DNA from: Candidatus Levyibacteriota bacterium
GTDB lineage: Bacteria > Patescibacteriota > Microgenomatia > Levybacterales > UBA12049
Assembly (NCBI GenBank): GCA_052034235.1
Contig: JBPOIT010000005.1
Coordinates: forward strand, 177,698-241,697
Reading direction: 5' to 3'
Length of the DNA stretch: 64,000 nucleotides
Part shown: positions 6,618-61,117 of the stretch, piece after piece
How the letters are laid out: each line of letters opens with the position of its first letter
Position numbering within the stretch: the first letter of the stretch is position 1
Notes under the pieces: model-generated
Seen by the model: only the letters and a program-made list of their open reading frames with translations
What the model was told of the DNA's origin: nothing
Databases searched by the model: none
Translations under genes and position numbers: made by a program

Positions 6618-6650
6618 AATTAAAAAAACAAAAAAACCGCCTTTCGGCGG
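6618..6650 (-). terminator. intrinsic terminator (attenuator) in the thr-operon leader
   Basis: On the minus strand there is a stem CCGCC-GAAA-GGCGG followed by the run TTTTTTTGTTTTTTT. It lies about 8 nt upstream of the ilvA ATG and downstream of the leader peptide. Confidence 0.6.
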
Positions 6651-6686
6651 GTCTTGGTATGTTAGCTCACACGTACCAATCCCACC

Positions 6687-14546: not shown

Positions 14547-15776
14547 ATGGCTGATCAATCACAACGGATCTTTCCAATCACTGGTAAAATTTTTTCCAGT
14601 CCTTACGATTGGGGTGGTAAAGAACTTATTCCACAAACGCTTGGCTTTACTCCTGAACCTGGTGTTCCTTATGCTGAATATTGGATCGGAGCACACAAAC
14701 GTGCACCATCAATGGTTGAATACTCAGATGGAACAAAATCGCTTGAAGAGATAATCGCCGGAAATCCTGAGGATATTTTAGGTTCAGAAGTAGCCAAGCG
14801 GTTTGGAGAACTTCCGTTTCTTTTTAAATTGTCCGAGGCCAAAAAAATGCTCTCAGTACAAGTACACCCAAATAAAAAACAAGCAGAAGAAGGTTTTGCA
14901 ATTGAGGAGAAATCAGGTATCCCTGCAACCGATTTGAAACGCACATTTAAAGATCCCAATTCTAAAACCGAAATGCCGCTCGCTCTGGGGGATTTTTGGC
15001 TCCTCCATGGACTAAGACCTGAAAGCGAAATGCTTGAAATTTTAAAAGAAACCAAAGAGTTAACGCCGCTTATTCCAATTTTTGGAAACAACGATTATCG
15101 AGCTCTTTATAAACATGTCCTAAGCGATATGTCCAAAGAGGAAGTGAATACGATGCTTTCCCCGCTTGCGATGAGAATTCGTAGACAATATGAAGATATT
15201 GAATTACAAAAAACTTCTCCTGACTATTGGGCTGCAAAGGCGATAAAGGATTTTAACATGCAAGAAGGAGACTATGACCGAGGATTATTCTCACTCTATT
15301 TCGCCAATATCGTTCATTTAAAAGCTGGTGATGCACTTTTCCAAAACGAAGGCGTTATTCATGCATTTCTCGAAGGACAATATATCGAAATCATGCAAAA
15401 TTCAGACAACATTGCCCGTGCTGGTATGACCAATAAACCGATTGATATTGAAGGGCTTATGAAATTTATGACATTCACCTCCCAAAAACCAAACATATTA
15501 GAAGGGAGAAAAGAGAATAATGAGATATTTTATGACGCGCCTGCTGATGAATTCCTCGTCAGTCAGCTTTTATTAAAAGACGGCATGCCCTACAAACAAA
15601 CCTCTTATTCTGTTGAAATACTCATGGGGATTACCGGCAACGCAACAATTACATCAGATGGAATATCACTTCCACTTGGACAAGGGAAAAGTATCGTTGT
15701 CTTCGCAGACGCGACCTACGAAATTACGGGCACAGAAACTGACGTTATCTTTAAAACAGCTGTTCCACACAAATGA
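14547..15776 (+). CDS. manA: mannose-6-phosphate isomerase, class I
   Basis: 409 aa. Has the motifs YAEYWIGAH, LPFLFKLSEAKKMLSVQVHP (zinc ligands Q/H) and C-terminal HAF, which are diagnostic of type I PMI. Confidence 0.85.
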   Translation: MADQSQRIFPITGKIFSSPYDWGGKELIPQTLGFTPEPGVPYAEYWIGAHKRAPSMVEYSDGTKSLEEIIAGNPEDILGSEVAKRFGELPFLFKLSEAKKMLSVQVHPNKKQAEEGFAIEEKSGIPATDLKRTFKDPNSKTEMPLALGDFWLLHGLRPESEMLEILKETKELTPLIPIFGNNDYRALYKHVLSDMSKEEVNTMLSPLAMRIRRQYEDIELQKTSPDYWAAKAIKDFNMQEGDYDRGLFSLYFANIVHLKAGDALFQNEGVIHAFLEGQYIEIMQNSDNIARAGMTNKPIDIEGLMKFMTFTSQKPNILEGRKENNEIFYDAPADEFLVSQLLLKDGMPYKQTSYSVEILMGITGNATITSDGISLPLGQGKSIVVFADATYEITGTETDVIFKTAVPHK

Positions 15777-18089: not shown

Positions 18090-18114
18090 TTTAAAAACTT
18101 TTATTTATTTATCT

Positions 18115-18582
18115 TTATCTCGTTACTGAAATTGTTTCTCCAAGTTCTGCTGCTGGGGCTGTGATTGTTATTCTACTATCGCCTGCTCCGACTGCTACTG
18201 TGTATCCAGTTACATATCCTGCTGGGCATGTTGATGCAATTGCTACTCCACCGTTTGTCAATGGATCTACTGGAAGTTGTGCGATATATTGGGTGACGAG
18301 TGCTCCACAGATATCTTGTGCTGCATCTGAAATTGCTCCTGATCCACCAGCTGCTGGCATTCCTGCTGGAAGTGCACCGTTATTGTCTGCTTGATATTGA
18401 CCTATTGCATTAAGGATAGCGTTTACGTCTGATGATCTCTTTGTGTTATTTGCTTGTGAGAATTGTCTTGCTGGATTGATAGCGATAAGGGTGATTGATA
18501 GGAGGATAGCTAAGATGCCGATAACGACTAGCAGTTCGATAAGTGTGAAACCTTTTTGTGATTTAAAATTTTGGACAGTCAT
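18115..18582 (-). CDS. pilA: type IV major pilin, copy 1
   Basis: 155 aa. Has a class III signal MTVQNFKSQKG|FTLIELLVVIGILAILLS with E at +5. The C-domain is Ala/Gly-rich with two Cys residues. Confidence 0.85.
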   Translation of the reverse strand: MTVQNFKSQKGFTLIELLVVIGILAILLSITLIAINPARQFSQANNTKRSSDVNAILNAIGQYQADNNGALPAGMPAAGGSGAISDAAQDICGALVTQYIAQLPVDPLTNGGVAIASTCPAGYVTGYTVAVGAGDSRITITAPAAELGETISVTR

Positions 18583-19563: not shown

Positions 19564-19585
19564 TGTAGATTAAGAATAATTAAAT

Positions 19586-20053
19586 TTAGCGAGTGACTGA
19601 GATAGTTTCACCAAGTTCTGCTGCTGGGGCTGTGATTGTCACTCTACTATCACCCGCTCCGACTGCTACTGTGTATCCGGTTACATATCCTGCTGGGCAT
19701 GTCGATGCGATTGCAACGCCACCGCCGGTCAATGGATCTACTGGAAGTTGCGCGATATATTGGGTGACAAGTGCCCCACAAATATCCTGTGCTGCATCTG
19801 AGATCGTTCCAGACGCTCCTGCAGCTGGCATTCCTGCTGGAAGAGCTCCATTGTTATCTGCTTGATATTGGCCGATTGCATTAAGGATAGCATTTACATC
19901 AGATGATCTCTTTGTGTTATTTGCTTGTGAGAATTGTCTTGCTGGATTGATAGCGATAAGGGTGATTGATAGAAGGACTGCTAAAATACCGATAACGACG
20001 AGGAGTTCGATGAGTGTGAAACCTTTTTGGGATTTAAAATTTTGGACAGTCAT
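19586..20053 (-). CDS. pilA: type IV major pilin, copy 2
   Basis: 155 aa. Has the same prepilin leader as copy 1. It differs from copy 1 at about 5 residues (I13V, G90A, A93T, N117G, I143V). Confidence 0.85.
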   Translation of the reverse strand: MTVQNFKSQKGFTLIELLVVIGILAVLLSITLIAINPARQFSQANNTKRSSDVNAILNAIGQYQADNNGALPAGMPAAGASGTISDAAQDICGALVTQYIAQLPVDPLTGGGVAIASTCPAGYVTGYTVAVGAGDSRVTITAPAAELGETISVTR

Positions 20054-34093: not shown

Positions 34094-34157
34094 ATTTACA
34101 AAAAAACTGTTCCTAAAGAACAGTTCTATAAGTTATTATACACTAAAGGTAACCAAA

Positions 34158-36497: not shown

Positions 36498-37388
36498 ATG
36501 AAAATAACTCCGCTAAAGATAAATATGGTTCAGGAAATGCGTGCAATACGAACTTCATACACTGCTGCAACAACAGTCGGTTTTATTCCTACCATGGGTT
36601 ATTTGCATGAAGGGCATCTTTCACTTGTGCGAAAAGCCAGGAAGGAAAATGACGTTGTTATCGTGAGTATTTTTGTAAATCCAACACAATTTGGTCCGAA
36701 CGAAGATTTATCTCGCTATCCTCAGGATATTGAACGTGATACCGTATTACTTAAAGAAGTTGGTGTTGATATCGTTTTTACCCCAAACGCTGAATCGATG
36801 TATCCTGAGCGTTTTCAAACATACGTTGACCCACTGGGACTTCTCGTCACTGAAGTTGAAGGTGCTATTCGCCCTGGACACTTTCGCGGTATGGCTACAA
36901 TTGTGTTGAAATTGTTTAACATCATCAAACCTACAAATGTCTATTTCGGACAAAAAGACGCCCAGCAAGCACTTATTGTTGAAAAAATGATCACAGATCT
37001 TAATTTACCTATTACGTTCAACGTAGAACCCACAGTCCGCGAAAAAGATGGTTTGGCAATGAGCAGCCGTAATGTCTACTTAACTCCTGATGAAAGAAAA
37101 GCAGCAGCAGTGCTTTACAAAGCACTACAAAAAGGCAAAGAGATATTTGACAAAAATCTGGACAAAAATGTTGACATTGTGAGAGACGCAATAAGTGAGA
37201 TACTCGTTTCAGAGCCCCTTTTGAGCCTAGAATATATTGAAATTCGAAATCCTCAAACATTTGAAAAACAAAACAAACTTGCAGCTCCCTCCCTTATGTT
37301 GATTGCTGTTAAACTTGGAAAAACCCGACTCATAGATAACTTTTTACTCCAATCAAACGGAACCTGGAATACAGGAAGACTTGTCTAA
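36498..37388 (+). CDS. panC: pantoate--beta-alanine ligase
   Basis: 296 aa. Has FIPTMGYLHEGHLSLV (HIGH-like motif) and VSIFVNPTQFGPNED. It is leaderless: TACAAT lies 6 nt before the ATG. Confidence 0.85.
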   Translation: MKITPLKINMVQEMRAIRTSYTAATTVGFIPTMGYLHEGHLSLVRKARKENDVVIVSIFVNPTQFGPNEDLSRYPQDIERDTVLLKEVGVDIVFTPNAESMYPERFQTYVDPLGLLVTEVEGAIRPGHFRGMATIVLKLFNIIKPTNVYFGQKDAQQALIVEKMITDLNLPITFNVEPTVREKDGLAMSSRNVYLTPDERKAAAVLYKALQKGKEIFDKNLDKNVDIVRDAISEILVSEPLLSLEYIEIRNPQTFEKQNKLAAPSLMLIAVKLGKTRLIDNFLLQSNGTWNTGRLV

Positions 37389-41353: not shown

Positions 41354-41442
41354 ATGTTAAAAAAACAAAACCCTCCTTCATTGCCATGTCCCATAGAGGT
41401 GATGGCCAAGATGAGGGTAAGTTCTAACATATAGTATACACC

Positions 41443-41822
41443 CTAACTAATGTTTTTTACAAGCTCTATTTCTAAGAGCTCATTGTGGGTGTTTAATACG
41501 ACTGTTACAGCGTCTATTCTCATAAGTTTTTGCAAATGCGGGTTTCTCATACAATAATATGAAGCAGTCTTCATAAGTGATTTCAACTTATAATACGTTA
41601 TCGCTTCAAGCGGCGTGCCAATTTCTCCGGTTGATCTTGTTTTTACTTCAATAAATACGAGGGTTTTCTGACTTGTCAGTTGAGAAGTCTCAATTGCAAT
41701 AATATCAATTTCTCCACCCCGGATTCTAAAATTTCTATCAATTATTTGAAAACCTAGTTATTTTAGATAAGAAACAGCTAAATCCTCTCCTCGTTTGCCT
41801 TGGATATTTTTAAAAAGAGTCA
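41443..41822 (-). pseudogene. yraN: YraN/UPF0102-family endonuclease gene interrupted by an in-frame TAA
   Basis: The minus-strand translation is MTLFKNIQGKRGEDLAVSYLK*LGFQIIDRNFRIRGGEIDIIA…VFIEVKTRS…, which matches YraN across the stop. The stop is TAA at plus 41757..41759, in frame, with no frameshift. Confidence 0.5.
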
Positions 41823-41864
41823 TACTCTATTTAGATTAGCACGATGTCTAAAAGGAAGATACTA

Positions 41865-47781: not shown

Positions 47782-48333
47782 ATGGATTTACCAATTATTC
47801 TGATCGGCGCAATTGCTGTCATTCTTATTTATGTGTGGGTTGTCTACAACAGCCTTGTCACAGCGAGACTTCGTATTAAGGAAGCTTGGTCACAAATTGA
47901 TGTACAGCTGAAGCGCAGAACTGATCTGATTCCAAACCTTGTCGAAACCGTTAAAGGTTACGCCAAACACGAAAAAGAACTGCTTGAAAATATTACGAAA
48001 GCAAGAAGTGCGTTAATGAATGCTGGCTCAGCACAAGCAAAAGCTGAAGCAAATAATTTCCTTTCTGACACACTTAAATCATTGTTTGCTGTTGCGGAAA
48101 ATTATCCTGATTTGAAAGCAAGCCAAAACTTTATGGCACTCCAGCAGGAACTTTCTGATACTGAAGACAAGATTGCTTACTCAAGACAATTCTTAAACAG
48201 CAATGTACTTGATTACAACACAAAACTAAGTGTTTTCCCAAGTTCTTTAGTTGCAAAGATGTTTAACTTTAAGGAAGCAGAATTTTTTGAAGTCAGTGAA
48301 GAAGAACGAAAACCAGTTAAGGTACAGTTCTAA
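47782..48333 (+). CDS. lemA: LemA-family membrane protein
   Basis: 183 aa. Has an N-terminal TM segment and [40 protein letters not shown], a LemA hallmark. Confidence 0.8.
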
Positions 48334-48339
48334 AATAAC

Positions 48340-48432
48340 GAAATCCGAAATTCGAAACAAGCTAAAATTTCATAATTCAATAACACTCGTTATTGAACGA
48401 TGATTCTGAAATTTGTTTTTGTTTCGGATTTC
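48340..48432. repeat. ~93-bp palindromic intergenic element with GAAATCCGAAA/TTTCGGATTTC termini
   Basis: Has perfect 11-bp terminal inverted repeats (48340..48350 and 48422..48432). Inside are nested inverted pairs AAATTTCA/TGAAATTT and TCAATAAC-actc-GTTATTGA. It lies 10 nt before the htpX ATG. Confidence 0.6.
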
Positions 48433-48442
48433 AAGCTTAATT

Positions 48443-49336
48443 ATGACAATTTATAACGCTATTTCTTCTAATATCTGGAAAAGTTATCTTATCCTTTTCC
48501 TCTTTATCCTTTTTACGGCAACTGTTGCGTATGTCATCGTGCAGGGAGCAGGCTACGATCCTTCTTTAGGAATTTTTATTTTTATCGGTTCAGTCATTTA
48601 TAGTTTTATTAGCTATTTCAATGCAGACAAAATGGTACTCGCCACCTCAGGTGCAAAAGAAATTAAAAAGCACGATCACCCTGAACTTTTTAACCTCGTT
48701 GAAAATTTATCGATAGGTGAAGGCATGCCTATGCCCAAAATATATATCATGCATGACACGTCCCCAAACGCCTTCGCAACTGGCCGTGATCCAAAGCACG
48801 CAGCAGTCGCAGTCACGACTGGTATCCTTGAAAAATTAAATAAAACGGAACTTGAAGGTGTACTCGCACATGAACTTTCGCATATAAAAAATTATGATAC
48901 AAGACTTTTGGCAATAACAGCAGTATTGGTGGGTTTTATTTCACTGCTTGCTGATCTTTTTATGAGGCATATGTGGTGGGGAGGAATGAGAAATGATAGA
49001 AATAACAGATCAAGCAGCATTGTGCTTGTGGTGGCCATAGCACTGGCAATCCTTGCACCAGTTGTCGCAAGTCTTATACAGCTTGCAATATCACGCAGAC
49101 GTGAATTCCTCGCTGATGCATCAGGAGCACTTCTGACAAGGTATCCTGAAGGACTAGCGAGTGCCCTTGAAAAGATCTCAAGCGACCCAAAACCACTGAA
49201 AGCTGCCAACGGAGCAACTGCTCATTTATTTATCGTTAACCCCTTAAAAGGCAAAGGATTTTCAGGCTGGCTCACAAATCTATTCAGCACTCACCCACCA
49301 CTTGAAGAAAGAGTCCGAATCCTCAGATCAATGTAA
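48443..49336 (+). CDS. htpX: HtpX-like M48 zinc metalloprotease
   Basis: Has HELSHIKNYD (HExxH) and a downstream E in REFLAD, with TM segments flanking. The track ORF starts at a TTG at 48413; the ATG at 48443 (MTIYNAIS) is more likely. Confidence 0.8.
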   Translation: MTIYNAISSNIWKSYLILFLFILFTATVAYVIVQGAGYDPSLGIFIFIGSVIYSFISYFNADKMVLATSGAKEIKKHDHPELFNLVENLSIGEGMPMPKIYIMHDTSPNAFATGRDPKHAAVAVTTGILEKLNKTELEGVLAHELSHIKNYDTRLLAITAVLVGFISLLADLFMRHMWWGGMRNDRNNRSSSIVLVVAIALAILAPVVASLIQLAISRRREFLADASGALLTRYPEGLASALEKISSDPKPLKAANGATAHLFIVNPLKGKGFSGWLTNLFSTHPPLEERVRILRSM

Positions 49337-51716: not shown

Positions 51717-52326
51717 GCAAACACAAACAACGTTTTACATAGTCAGACACGGACAGACAGATTGGAATATAGAAAAAAAATTACAGGGACATACTGATGT
51801 TCCTTTAAATGAAACTGGAGAAATACAAGCAAAGGAACTGAGTTCGAAACTCGAAACAATAAAATTTGATTTGGCTTTTTCTTCAGATCTGTTACGGGCA
51901 AAGCGGACAGCGCAGGTAATAGCGCTTGAACAGAAATTAGCGGTCCAAACAACAGAGGTTTTACGCGAAAGAATGTTTGGAAAATTCGAGGGGCAACCAT
52001 ATAGTGCCCGGGACTCGTATTATGTATTTTTAGGAGAGTTGACACATGAGCAACGAATACATCATAAAATTGAGCCTGATATCGAAAGCGATAACGAACT
52101 AGTAACCCGTTTGATTACTTTTTTACGAGAAACAGCAGTAGTGAGTCCTGGGAAAACAATTCTTGTAGTAACGCATGGTGGACCGATACATGTACTGTTG
52201 AGACATTTTGGAGTTTTTAGTTATCAGGATAAGATTAAGGTCGGAAATACAGCGTATATTAGATTACTTTCTGACGGAGTTGATTTTTTTGTTAAGGAAC
52301 TTAATGGCATAAATCAAGTAAAATAA
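51709..52326 (+). CDS. histidine-phosphatase superfamily protein (PGM-like)
   Basis: 205 aa. Has FYIVRHGQTDWN (RHG motif) and VVTHGGPIH. It is inserted between gatC and gatA. Confidence 0.65.
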   Translation: MPKQTQTTFYIVRHGQTDWNIEKKLQGHTDVPLNETGEIQAKELSSKLETIKFDLAFSSDLLRAKRTAQVIALEQKLAVQTTEVLRERMFGKFEGQPYSARDSYYVFLGELTHEQRIHHKIEPDIESDNELVTRLITFLRETAVVSPGKTILVVTHGGPIHVLLRHFGVFSYQDKIKVGNTAYIRLLSDGVDFFVKELNGINQVK

Positions 52327-55113: not shown

Positions 55114-56172
55114 ATGCCTGAAGAACAAAATACCCATGATATTACTCATCCTGAACCAGTTCTAGGAAGTCTTCTTGCAGAACCTACTCAAGTTAAACCA
55201 TTAGTTCGTCAAGGAGAGCGAAGGCGTCATGAACGACCAACAGGGCCAGAAACAGCAAAGCAAGATGAACAATTTAGAAGAGTAATATTAATACATAAAA
55301 GATTTGGAGATGATCCTGCATTTAGAGAACTTTTTTATGAAAGAACCTCTGAGGCTCTCGAAAGATTAAAAACACTCATGCCTTCGCGTGAGACCCAAAC
55401 AGAAACGGGAGACCAAGAATTGAGCATAATTGCTGAAGTTGAAGCAACTTTCTTAGCAGAAAAAGAAATGCTGAAAAATGCAGCCGAAAAAGATAGTATA
55501 ACTGATCCATTAACAGGAGCATACAACAGAAGAGGTTTTGATCAAAAATTACTAGAAGCATTTGACGGTGTGAGAACATCAGGTAAGAGTGCAACATTAG
55601 CCGAATTGGACTTAGATCATTTTAAGAGAGTCAATGACACACTTGGACACGACGGGGGAGATATTGTTTTGGAAAAAACTGTTGAGTTTTTGAAACAAGT
55701 TTTAGGTGACAAAGGCTACATCGGACGATATGGAGGCGAAGAATTTTATATTCTTTTTCAAAACATGAATCCTCAAGAAACGAAAGATTTTCTTGAAGGC
55801 ATACGCGGAGATATGCCTAAATTTTTAAGGACACAACTCTCAGAAAAACAAATAAATACAGATCATCAACTTACTGCTAGCTGGGGTGTTGCGGCATTAT
55901 CTGCGGAGACTTCAATAGAAGATGCCAAGAAGGCTACAGATACCGCTCTTTACGCAGCTAAACAAAACGGAAGAAACCGGGTCGTCTCTTTTGAAGATAT
56001 TGAACTTGAAGAAAGAGCAGAATTGAACAACGCGGTTGAAAGCATTAAACAGCGTGCTGATCTTGCTGCAAAGGAGTTAATACGTAGAATGGAAGAATCT
56101 CCATATACAAGATGGCAAAATCGACAAGTATCACCTTCGATTCCTCTTCCTGAGGAACCGCAAAAAATATAA
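55114..56172 (+). CDS. GGDEF-domain diguanylate cyclase without a recognisable sensor domain
   Basis: 352 aa. Has LTGAYNRRGF, an RxxD-like I-site context, and the active site RYGGEEF. The ~170-aa N-terminus is charged, with no TM segment or known sensor fold. Confidence 0.8.
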   Translation: MPEEQNTHDITHPEPVLGSLLAEPTQVKPLVRQGERRRHERPTGPETAKQDEQFRRVILIHKRFGDDPAFRELFYERTSEALERLKTLMPSRETQTETGDQELSIIAEVEATFLAEKEMLKNAAEKDSITDPLTGAYNRRGFDQKLLEAFDGVRTSGKSATLAELDLDHFKRVNDTLGHDGGDIVLEKTVEFLKQVLGDKGYIGRYGGEEFYILFQNMNPQETKDFLEGIRGDMPKFLRTQLSEKQINTDHQLTASWGVAALSAETSIEDAKKATDTALYAAKQNGRNRVVSFEDIELEERAELNNAVESIKQRADLAAKELIRRMEESPYTRWQNRQVSPSIPLPEEPQKI

Positions 56173-59534: not shown

Positions 59535-60254
59535 ATGTTAGAACTGAAAGCAGAGACACTCGCACACATCGGACCCTTTCCTATAACCAACGCCATCGTT
59601 GATACCGTTCTCGTAGATATTATTCTGATCGCACTTGCTGTTTATATTTATAGAAGTGCCAAGCTAAACCCAACAAAATTCCAAAGTATTATCGAAATGG
59701 TAATTGAAGGCTTTTATAATCTTACAAATCAAGTAGCACCGCAAAATGCTAAAAAGATCTTTCCATTTGTTATGACTTTTTTTCTCTTTATTTTGATTTC
59801 AAACTGGACTGGTCTACTCCCAATTATCACAGCAATAACTGTCGGTCATGGTGAACATGAAGCGCATCTCATTCGAAGTGCCTCAACAGATTTGAACACA
59901 ACAATGGCGCTTGCTTTGGTTTCACTTGTTTCGACTCACACAATGAGTATTCAAACCCTCGGTCTTAAATCATACATTAGTAGATTTTTATCATTTAACC
60001 TACTCGCTCTTTATACAGGAGTTTTGGAGCTTATTTCAGAAATCACAAAGATCATCTCGTTTTCTTTCCGTCTTTTTGGTAATATATTCGTTGGAGAAGT
60101 TATGCTCGTTTCACTGTCTGCAGCATTTGCCTTCTTCCTGCCAATCCCGCTCATTATGTACGAAATGTTCGTCGGTGTGGTGCAAGCAGCTATTTTTGGG
60201 CTATTAACTATGGCATTCATGGGAATTTTTACAACTCCCCATGGAGAGCACTAA
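59535..60254 (+). CDS. atpB: F-type ATP synthase subunit a
   Basis: 239 aa, polytopic. Has the conserved Arg in SFSFRLFGNIFVGEV. Confidence 0.85.
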   Translation: MLELKAETLAHIGPFPITNAIVDTVLVDIILIALAVYIYRSAKLNPTKFQSIIEMVIEGFYNLTNQVAPQNAKKIFPFVMTFFLFILISNWTGLLPIITAITVGHGEHEAHLIRSASTDLNTTMALALVSLVSTHTMSIQTLGLKSYISRFLSFNLLALYTGVLELISEITKIISFSFRLFGNIFVGEVMLVSLSAAFAFFLPIPLIMYEMFVGVVQAAIFGLLTMAFMGIFTTPHGEH

Positions 60255-60279
60255 ATATAAGGGAGGTGATTTGAATTAT

Positions 60280-60486
60280 ATGGAAATTTCAATTACAGGT
60301 GGTATAATCGCAGCAATTGGAGGACTCGGACCTGCACTCGGTGTTGGTTTGATTGGCGCAAAAGCTATGGAAGCAATTGGCCGCAATCCAAACGCATCTG
60401 GCAAGATCATCCCAAACATGATCATCGCCATGGGTTTTGCTGAAGCTATCGCTATTTACGCATTAGTTTTCGCAATTATTGGGTAA
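60280..60486 (+). CDS. atpE: F-type ATP synthase subunit c
   Basis: 68 aa hairpin protein. Has a GxGxGxG helix 1 and the essential acidic residue in MGFAEAIAIYAL. A strong SD (GGGAGGTGA) lies 9 nt upstream. The track ORF starts at 60241. Confidence 0.85.
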   Translation: MEISITGGIIAAIGGLGPALGVGLIGAKAMEAIGRNPNASGKIIPNMIIAMGFAEAIAIYALVFAIIG

Positions 60487-60495
60487 CGAGTAAAA

Positions 60496-60597
60496 TCGAA
60501 ACCCGAAATTCGGAATTGTTCGACGTGCTCACGATACGTAGGTATTATTATACTGAGCAAAGTCGAAGGGTTTCGGATTTCGAAATTCGAATTTCGA
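60496..60597. repeat. ~100-bp palindromic intergenic element with TCGAAACCCGAAATTCG/GGGTTTCGGATTTCG termini plus an 18-bp perfect palindrome
   Basis: Arms TCGAAACCC (60496..60504)/GGGTTTCGG and TTCGAC/GTCGAA flank a 37-nt centre containing TATTATTATACT. TCGAAATTCGAATTTCGA (60580..60597) is a perfect palindrome. It shares the CGAAAYCCGAAATTCG motif with the 48340..48432 element. Confidence 0.55.
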
Positions 60598-60610
60598 GGA
60601 AAGAAATATT

Positions 60611-61117
60611 ATGGAAATTTTTGAAACATTTGGGATTGATGGACTTATTGTCCTTGCGCAAATTGTAAACTTTGTCATTATTTTGTTAATTCTTAAAAAG
60701 TTTGCTTATAAGCCAATTTTTAACATACTTAAAAAGCGTGAAGATTTAATAAAAGATACTGTTGAACGCGCTGAAGAACAAAAGAAAGCACTTGAACGAA
60801 CAGAAGCTGAAGAAAAGAAAATAGTCAAAAAAGCTAACGAATCAGCATCTCAAATCGTAAAAGATGCAAAAGAGCAGGCTGCAACCATCAGAAAAGAAGC
60901 TCAGGAAAAAGCGAAAAATGAAGCTGCGAAGATGATAATAGACGCAAAAGCGCAGATTGAAATCGAGAGAAAAGAAGTTGAAGCAAAGATATTAAAAGAT
61001 GTGACTGGACTTTCTGTCGAACTTTTGAGAAAATCACTATCTAAGATTCTTACTGATAAAGAGCAGGATGAAGTTGTAAAACGTGCAATTACTGTTTTAC
61101 AAAAGCAATCAAACTAA
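60611..61117 (+). CDS. atpF: F-type ATP synthase subunit b
   Basis: 168 aa. Has an N-terminal TM segment and a long charged E/K/A-rich coiled coil. Confidence 0.8.
   Translation: MEIFETFGIDGLIVLAQIVNFVIILLILKKFAYKPIFNILKKREDLIKDTVERAEEQKKALERTEAEEKKIVKKANESASQIVKDAKEQAATIRKEAQEKAKNEAAKMIIDAKAQIEIERKEVEAKILKDVTGLSVELLRKSLSKILTDKEQDEVVKRAITVLQKQSN

Follow-up and report, generated by a model that had tools for sequence, protein, structure and literature searches.

Two hairpins, one in the spacer between lemA and htpX (E1) and one in the spacer between atpE and atpF (E2), lie in a 64-kb stretch of DNA from a Candidatus Levyibacteriota bacterium (contig JBPOIT010000005.1, positions 177,698 to 241,697; the whole stretch is referred to as the window) and belong to a family of heptamer-built palindromes that occurs in many bacterial phyla. 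We consider that E1 and E2 are probably gene-less, short and partly decayed copies of a selfish palindrome family resembling the intervening sequences of 23S rRNA, residing in mRNA spacers instead of rRNA helices. The assignment is based on the presence of the same element across phyla in spacers between co-directional genes and on its full form, which carries in the loop a gene of the PF05635/TIGR02436 type; this is the type of protein that 23S rRNA intervening sequences encode, and it is related to Avd of diversity-generating retroelements. The family enters intercistronic spacers and is lost from them, and a role of its members as RNA-processing sites is plausible.

A palindrome family spread across phyla

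Genome contigs, one genome per species and 596 Gb in total, were scanned with the termini pattern GAAAYCCGAAA-N50-80-TTTCGGRTTTC. At least 120 genome stretches matched, while about 4 would be expected arithmetically for 596 Gb. Among the matches listed, Planctomycetota were represented by Gemmataceae, Pirellulaceae, Phycisphaerae and Brocadiae, and further matches were found in Verrucomicrobiota, Lentisphaerae/Victivallales, Kiritimatiellia, Omnitrophota, “delta-proteobacteria”, Acidobacteriota, Margulisiibacteriota, Saccharibacteria and other Patescibacteria. Several single genomes held four or five of these matches, and the elements stayed AT-rich even though host GC content spans 39-69%. 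A single contaminating source is unlikely, because the flanks of the copies differ. The original prediction of a dispersed palindromic family inside operons, like repetitive extragenic palindromes (REPs) or MITEs (miniature inverted-repeat transposable elements) in a broad sense, was thus borne out by copies in many phyla, far beyond the window. In scans of viral contigs the true order of the arms was found at 7 loci and the reversed order at none; the seven IMG/VR contigs classed as viral that bear CGAA-type elements are L131-L137, L133 being L135 in opposite orientation. A BLAST search of plasmid and phage collections with a canonical copy gave no match, to which the low-complexity filter may contribute.

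The family has a well-defined anatomy. At the matched loci, adjacent arrays were ordered as CGAAnnn followed by nnnTTCG in 81 cases and the other way round in one. The commonest units are CGAAATC, CGAAACA, CGAAACC, CGAAATT, CGAAGCA and CGAATAT, and the outer-arm consensus reads AAATYCGAAnnnCGAAnnnCGAAATCCGAAACAAAT. When 60 copies were anchored on the inner junction, sharp ends emerged: 5'-AAATYCGAA nnn CGAA nnn CGAAATCCGAAACAAAT ... ATTTGTTTCGGATTTCG nnn TTCG nnn TTCGRATTT-3'. Twelve intact copies from at least 6 lineages measure 128-134 nt (5 of them exactly 134) and align end to end nearly without gaps. Variation is almost absent from the outer ~38 nt of each arm, where CGAA/TTCG tetrads pair and the intervening triplets are often mismatched, while the central ~60 nt vary from copy to copy (identity 0.62, compared with 0.53 in shuffles), each centre being palindromic to its own degree (z -0.5 to -8.9).

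To relate E1 and E2 to this family we used an arm profile built from 122 arms, all from other genomes, and searched the window with nhmmer. The profile matched the 3' arm of E2 (E 3.4e-8, the best match in the window), the 5' arm of E1 (1.9e-5), the 5' arm of E2 (0.011) and the 3' arm of E1 (0.014); the sole other match, at 51841, was marginal (E 0.014) and lies in coding sequence. Since the profile picks out their four arms, E1 and E2 are genuine family members, though shorter and partly decayed. E2 spans ~106 nt and keeps AAAATCGAA at its 5' end and ...AATTTCGA at its 3' end, and E1 spans ~95-105 nt with decayed outer units. The canonical termini AAATYCGAA...TTCGRATTT together with a length of ~128-134 nt are found in neither, and we therefore regard both as truncated or decayed copies.

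The genomic setting of the two hairpins follows the habit of the family. According to crude gene calls, gene pairs flanking the family copies among the matches listed were co-directional in 68, convergent in 14 and divergent in 4 cases, and the gaps between element and neighbouring gene were typically 10-100 nt on both sides. E1 and E2 likewise occupy short co-directional spacers and begin just past a stop codon.

Link to the four-helix-bundle gene

In a Kaiserbacteria contig, CGAA-type termini AAATCCGAAGCACGAAATCCGAAACAA ... TTGTTTCGTATTTCGAATTTCGGATTT enclose an open reading frame (ORF) of 122 amino acids. The product matches TIGR02436, “four helix bundle protein”, with E 4.5e-21; it bears PF05635 (23S_rRNA_IVP), and the five-chain PDB entry 2RLD is a relative. 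The arm of E1 is almost identical to the arm of this cassette, and 1.1 kb from the cassette the same contig has a gene-less copy that ends in the same way. The cassette is fixed between secA and obg across the Kaiserbacteria clade, with proteins 83-100% identical; as three Kaiserbacteria four-helix-bundle proteins share this one site, vertical inheritance and not fresh transposition accounts for them. The order and number of units in the cassette arms vary even among near-identical strains. For instance, L239 and L240 encode the same protein and differ by a deletion of ~3 heptamer units from the left inverted repeat (~2450-2500), upstream of the four-helix-bundle gene, a difference that parallels strain variation in Coxiella (PMC4990558).

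The association of such genes with heptamer arrays extends beyond the CGAA unit. Of 30 flanks of four-helix-bundle genes, 27 gave 7 nt as the best repeat period, as against 34 of 422 random segments; these flanks belong to 15 gene copies, three of which represent a single orthologous insertion in Kaiserbacteria. Two more such genes at the loci and another from a viral contig are flanked by inverted arrays built of different units, namely GCGGAAA (best period 8), CAATnnn and an AATnATG type. We also found inverted arrays around most of eight plasmid-borne four-helix-bundle genes of cultured Nostoc, Aulosira, Planktothrix, Gloeocapsa, Chlorohelix and Treponema, an example being (AATTCAA)4 ... 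(TTGAATT)4; in Pseudanabaena and Bernardetia the flanking arrays are direct repeats. Such genes have co-directional host genes close by on either side and are often part of defence-like operons. On plasmids L249 (Chlorohelix), L252 (Gloeocapsa) and L250 (Pseudanabaena) the four-helix-bundle gene stands within such operons, in the arrangements helicase, four-helix-bundle gene, N6-methylase; DUF1156, four-helix-bundle gene, Swt1-HEPN; and four-helix-bundle gene directly upstream of cas1. Identical copies on three Nostoc plasmids are situated inside larger duplicated blocks and are uninformative on mobility.

The protein family is very large, with at least 8,000 candidates, all below E 1e-8, and searches of viral contigs with four-helix-bundle alignments returned 1 and 0 loci. 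In the open-access literature we found no description of the CGAAATC element or of PF05635 genes between period-7 inverted arrays; nothing relevant was found there on such repeats in Planctomycetes or Patescibacteria, and literal sequences matched primers only.

Turnover at orthologous sites

Comparison with relatives revealed different histories of the two spacers. The lemA-htpX spacer is empty in L218 (9 nt) and in L219 (15 nt), the latter a relative with 90% identity in HtpX; elsewhere it holds unrelated palindromes, in L220 GTCATTCTGG...CCAGAATGAC and in L221 a hairpin built of CCATTTn heptamers. Because the site is empty or otherwise filled in relatives, the copy in the window looks like a dispensable insertion.

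At atpE-atpF, CGAA-type copies are present in the window, L222, L224 and L139, the copy of L139 being a full canonical one. The site is occupied by the GTCATTCTGG type in L225 and L226, by TCWGA units in L227 and a neighbouring clade, and by GAATTAA or CTAAATT heptamers in other relatives; at least five unrelated repeat families have reoccupied it. According to the AtpF tree, the repeat family at this site is mostly clade-specific, with replacements. In the relatives examined, an AtpF at least ~45% identical always goes with a spacer of 80-140 nt and a stable hairpin, whereas below ~45% the spacer is only 3-10 nt. The atp site retains a hairpin whatever its sequence family. Between the window and L224, identity is 85-90% in the arms of the atp copy, compared with 47-61% at third codon positions. 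Furthermore, sense-strand folding at this site is favoured over antisense folding by a mean of 2.7 kcal/mol (16 of 26; Wilcoxon p 0.04), and the sense strand has the advantage in all four CGAA-type orthologs.

Several observations concern the other repeats at these sites. CGTCATT-initial palindromic spacer families, the GTCATTCTGG...CCAGAATGAC type and the GTCATTGCGA type, occupy the same two sites in relatives (L220 298-423; L225 897-986; atpE-atpF spacers of L140, L150 and L159). The TCWGA hairpin family has units of 8-9 nt rather than 7 and is found at atpE-atpF of L141, L143, L152, L154-L156 and L227, with a second copy elsewhere in the atp operon of L143 (14695-14748). One 20-kb stretch of L160 bears three heptamer hairpins, CTAAATT (atpE-atpF), a TTAAATT type and a GTCAAAA type (2262-2334, 15079-15215), and several unit families can thus coexist in one genome.

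The two hairpins in the window

The features of E1 and E2 and of the adjacent genes are collected in Table 1. Both elements are long imperfect hairpins, as had been predicted from their sequence, and none of 200 shuffles was as stable as either of them (minimum free energy -34.3 kcal/mol and z -6.2 for E1, -43.5 kcal/mol and z -5.1 for E2). Their interiors are mutually unrelated. What they have in common is a tandem 7-nt array, (CGAAnnn)n on the 5' side and (nnnTTCG)n on the 3' side, with 3 + ~2 units in E1 and 3 + 4 in E2 (5' arm + 3' arm). The motif of ~20 nt that was said to be inverted at both ends of each element is mirrored in full only in E2; in E1 just a core of 11-12 nt is mirrored. 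Exact GAAAYCCGAAA and its complement occur at four sites in the window, all in the arms of E1 (48340-48350 and 48422-48432) and E2 (60498-60508 and 60571-60581). The supposition that the motif might be limited to two places holds inside the window but clearly fails in public genomes. With up to 3 mismatches allowed, the 19-nt pattern CGAAAYYCGAAAYYCGRAA gave 10 matches in the window as against 0.5 expected, a number reached in none of 100 shuffles. Its matches beyond E1 and E2 (37238, 51838, 51845) fall within coding sequence, and those at 37238 and 51838 are put down to chance. The observation itself is real and beyond chance.

Table 1. Positions of the parts of E1 and E2 and of the genes on either side of them in the window.
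Feature	Position	Strand	Basis
E1, entire hairpin element in the lemA-htpX spacer	48340..48432	.	fold and sequence
E1 5' arm, 3 heptamer units CGAAATC CGAAATT CGAAACA	48339..48359	+	sequence; profile match 48338-48362
E1 3' arm, TTTGTTTTTGTTTCGGATTTC: decayed unit, then GTTTCG GATTTC	48412..48432	+	sequence; minus-strand profile match 48432-48417
AAGCTTAATT, apparent decayed outer units of the E1 3' arm	48433-48442		sequence
E1 apical hairpin TTCAATAAC-ACTC-GTTATTGAA, centre specific to this copy	48376..48397	+	fold; without counterpart in E2
E2 5' arm, family-type terminus AAAATCGAA, then CGAAACC CGAAATT CGGAATT	60492..60517	+	sequence; profile match 60492-60512
E2 centre, inner stem GTTCGAC/GTCGAA around a window-specific nested hairpin	60518..60567	+	fold
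Nested hairpin GTGCTCA...TGAGCA in the E2 centre, bears promoter-like TATTAT	60526-60559
E2 3' arm, GGGTTTCG GATTTCG AAATTCG AATTTCG A	60568..60597	+	sequence; minus-strand profile match 60597-60569
lemA, upstream of E1	47782..48333	+	ORF; PF04011 LemA on orthologs
htpX, M48 peptidase, downstream of E1	48443..49336	+	ORF; PF01435 on homologs
atpE, c subunit, upstream of E2	60241..60486	+	ORF; PF00137
atpF, b subunit, downstream of E2	60611..61117	+	ORF; PF00430

The 5' arm of E2 begins 5 nt past the atpE stop codon (60484-60486), and the end of its 3' arm overlaps the GAGG ribosome-binding site of atpF (60596-60599). The 18-bp perfect palindrome TCGAAATTCGAATTTCGA that was noted next to this ribosome-binding site is present at 60580-60597, abutting the GAGG inside the 3' arm; it consists of two self-complementary heptamer units and nothing more. 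E2 is identical throughout the strain variants L001-L010.

We considered whether the hairpins could be regulatory signals of a familiar kind. The suggestion of an attenuator or terminator found no support: E1 and E2 lack a U-tract, no terminator-like site was found on the sense strand at either, and canonical intrinsic terminators, with a G+C-rich stem and a U run, lie elsewhere in the window, for example near 6640-6680, 34100-34130 and 41385-41420 (minus strand). A promoter in the E2 loop was likewise not supported. The candidate TCGACG-17-TATTAT scores 9 of 12, the region has 3 promoter-like sites, a number within the shuffle range (1.1 +/- 1.1) and no better than chance, and in the orthologous copy of L222 the loop segment with the promoter-like TATTAT is replaced by only AGAT. 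Rfam at gathering threshold identified two tRNAs in the whole window and nothing at E1 or E2, for which no family exists; at the level of E-values the elements gave chance matches to microRNA hairpins only.

The window, which the analysis assigned to a small Patescibacteria genome near Saccharimonadales, is AT-rich (39.5% GC) and gene-dense and encodes MurT/GatD, GatCAB, DnaE and atpBEFHAGDC. It also contains a gene for a GGDEF-domain protein of the c-di-GMP synthase type (55114-56172) between gatB and dnaE, and a direct repeat of 300 nt, 86% identical (18106-18405 and 19577-19876), that spans two paralogous ORFs of 155 amino acids, both on the minus strand (18115-18582 and 19586-20053). A YraN/UPF0102-like frame at 41354-41864 (minus strand) is broken by an in-frame TAA and followed by a canonical terminator; it may represent a pseudogene or a case of recoding, or else result from an error in sequencing.

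Comparison with known systems and rival explanations

The closest likeness is to the 23S rRNA intervening sequences of Coxiella, Leptospira, Salmonella and others. Since about 1990 it has been debated where these sequences come from, how they move and what their four-helix-bundle family does. In Coxiella the intervening sequence is a 428-nt selfish element of unclear origin whose terminal inverted repeats are cut by RNase III, with an ORF for the S23p four-helix-bundle protein in the loop and, in the 5' region, 2-3 tandem GACAGAT heptamers whose number depends on the strain (PMC4990558). The shared traits are a long stem formed by terminal inverted repeats, a loop that is either empty (~100 nt) or holds a PF05635 ORF of ~120 amino acids, tandem heptamers of strain-variable number in the stem region, and the behaviour of a selfish insertion. 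E1 and E2 have terminal inverted repeats in an extended stem, comparable to the 28-bp stem of Coxiella (PMC4990558), and tandem heptamers in their arms; variation in heptamer number is seen between L239 and L240. In contrast, intervening sequences sit in rRNA helices, whereas E1, E2 and all 130 copies examined sit in protein-operon spacers, and the CGAAATC unit and the fixed format of ~134 nt have not been described for intervening sequences.

Heptameric intergenic repeats offer a second comparison; among them are the short tandemly repeated repetitive (STRR) sequences of cyanobacteria. Published arrays consist of GGGAATC in Xanthomonas (as inverted pairs), of GGGGA(C/T)T in Nostoc, and of TAACTGA in Beggiatoaceae, Cyanobacteria and Bacteroidetes; the papers interpret them as G-quadruplex or translational signals and make no mention of four-helix-bundle genes (PMC4692102, PMC4679880). 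They share with the CGAA family the intergenic tandem 7-nt units, in some cases convergent pairs able to form stem-loops, and a spread across phyla that puzzled their authors, but they have other unit sequences and no discrete element with defined ends was reported (PMC4692102, PMC4679880). Other small palindromes resemble the family less. Transcribed MITEs such as the Neisseria Correia element and the enterobacterial repetitive intergenic consensus (ERIC) are palindromes of 100-150 bp inside transcription units, and Correia element RNA is cut by RNase III; in contrast to them, the CGAA family has neither target-site duplications nor a parent insertion sequence with transposase, and its copies differ in their centres and do not descend from one master copy. 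A cut-and-paste MITE is also disfavoured by the target-site duplication of 0-1 nt in 15 intact copies and by the lack of any transposase between the same inverted repeats, the sole cargo being the 122-amino-acid four-helix-bundle protein. Integron attC sites, too, are imperfect palindromes (60-140 bp) that lie between co-directional genes and combine conserved ends with a variable centre, but the CGAA elements have no RYYYAAC/GTTRRRY core sites and their neighbours are core housekeeping genes, not cassettes.

A number of points weigh against reading E1 and E2 as relatives of intervening sequences. They are located between protein genes and not in a 23S rRNA helix (9, 25 or 45); there is no rRNA in the window and no rRNA gene around any other copy examined. 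Neither E1 nor E2 nor the rest of the 64-kb window contains a four-helix-bundle ORF, and the RNase III gene (rnc) is absent from the window as well. Exact CGAA-type termini surround a four-helix-bundle gene in one lineage only, and the loop of a hairpin that was already there could just as well have received the gene. Neither a target-site duplication (15 intact copies) nor a transposase was found that would point to a mechanism of mobility. The outer stem of the canonical copies, where covariation had been proposed as a check, has invariant columns and gives no covariation either way. In 55 co-directional elements of other phyla there was no excess of sense-strand G-U over A-C mismatches (25 and 24, respectively), and the asymmetric GCA/TAT sub-type showed no significant relation to gene direction (16 and 9); selection at the RNA level is hence not general. 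Finally, gene calls are crude in the GC-rich loci, and the phylum labels are the depositors' own, given to metagenome-assembled genomes.

Of the other explanations, the one that deserves most attention is that E1 and E2 are regulatory hairpins evolved by the host, E2 being required by the operon as a stabiliser of the 3' end of atpB-atpE mRNA or as a processing site favouring the c subunit over b, delta and the rest, with the shared motif secondary. Stabilisation of upstream mRNA by stems between cistrons is established, the REP between malE and malF being an example, and the hairpin present in every relative with a sufficiently similar AtpF, the more stable sense-strand folds and arms conserved far beyond synonymous sites all speak for such a function at the atp site. 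As a primary origin we nevertheless find it unlikely. Local need does not explain why the same arm of 30-40 nt stands at unrelated loci in other phyla, the lemA-htpX spacer is empty in a relative sharing 90% of HtpX residues, and the atp site has been refilled by unrelated repeats; domestication of a selfish element at that site agrees with the family of intervening-sequence-like palindromes, so that host regulation competes with it only over where the hairpins came from. The arrays could also act as DNA, with CGAA recurring every 7 bp (3 units make 2 helical turns), the four-helix-bundle pentamer as candidate binder and a role in DNA structure or replication and not in RNA. This we hold to be improbable, even though sequence is conserved beyond pairing (invariant CGAA/TTCG tetrads with free triplets), arm order relative to the dyad and element length are fixed, and the 55 elements have no strand or orientation bias. 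The scarcity of copies between divergent genes suggests that they must be transcribed, and the atp site does show a sense-strand bias; the binding is only predicted, and such arrays would be compatible with the family assignment, differing just in the level of action.

REP and REPIN elements depend for their movement on a REP-associated tyrosine transposase (RAYT), for which each genome would have a gene at another locus. They share with the CGAA family the size of ~100-134 nt, two conserved inverted ends around a variable spacer, the intergenic position seldom between divergent genes, and the missing target duplication expected of Y1 transposases; mRNA-stabilising roles of REPs are also known. 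The defining feature of REPs is a GTAG or CGTC head on an imperfect palindrome of 20-40 nt (PMC3733652), and as no such head is present in E1 or E2, a reading as REPs in the strict RAYT sense is not supported. Moreover, REP families are specific to a species or genus and this family spans phyla; no RAYT was seen near 120 loci, no gene recurs beside the elements among 2,228 ORFs around these 120 elements (loci up to 8 kb), the top cluster of neighbouring genes being spurious ORFs that run through the repeats, and the four-helix-bundle gene is the only coding partner seen. We therefore regard an origin from REPs as very improbable. Hardly credible is the idea of unrelated slippage products, ordinary heptameric simple repeats that came to lie head to head as in cyanobacterial and Xanthomonas arrays, with no family identity. 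Heptameric repeats are over-represented in bacteria, convergent heptamer pairs exist in Xanthomonas (PMC4692102) and unit number differs between near-identical strains. The CGAA copies, however, have sharp ends, a fixed length and an order of distinct units conserved across phyla; the profile matches in the window centre on the arms of E1 and E2, one marginal extra site aside, and the matches in public genomes far exceed the expected number.

Possible mechanism and implications

On the reading of E1 and E2 as intervening-sequence-like palindromes, the elements would be co-transcribed with their operon and would fold into a double-stranded stem of at least 40 base pairs. By analogy with rRNA intervening sequences, RNase III would probably cut this stem and so split the transcript after lemA and after atpE (atpB-atpE from atpF and the following genes), with a protective stem remnant left at each new end. 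Such a processing role is plausible because RNase III excises 23S rRNA intervening sequences (PMC4990558), the nearest relatives known. At atpE-atpF the effect may have been co-opted to raise c-subunit mRNA over the downstream cistrons, which would explain why this spacer never loses its hairpin; the never empty site, the sense-strand bias and the conserved arms point in this direction. The lemA-htpX element is probably neutral. Copies might be born as fold-back palindromes that later decay inward of the conserved arms, as suggested by the near-perfect centres of some copies and the decayed centres of others, and we speculate that the four-helix-bundle pentamer may recognise the heptamer arrays.

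More tentatively, heptamer-array hairpins and PF05635 genes might together form one unrecognised class of cross-phylum mobile elements, of which the rRNA intervening sequences would be only a special case known for long. The pentamer would recognise the 7-nt arrays at its own ends and favour copying or processing, and the gene-less palindromes of ~134 nt, E1 and E2 included, would be non-autonomous passengers, born as near-perfect fold-backs, spread between phyla and recruited, for example at atpE-atpF, as RNase III-dependent operon punctuation. We view this broader scheme as a possibility with less than even chances.

The elements are best filed as a known kind, heptamer palindromes like intervening sequences, in a new CGAAATC variant with a testable link to an enigmatic protein family. 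The long-standing puzzle of the intervening sequences thereby becomes testable through a discrete, length-constrained palindrome shared across phyla, its presence in mRNA spacers and the four-helix-bundle genes between period-7 inverted arrays. For annotation, the family accounts for many puzzling AT-rich hairpins between genes, both in the GC-rich genomes of Planctomycetota and Verrucomicrobiota and in those of Patescibacteria; such hairpins should not be taken for terminators. For operon biology, our results suggest how bacteria with tiny genomes may gain intercistronic processing sites from selfish DNA.

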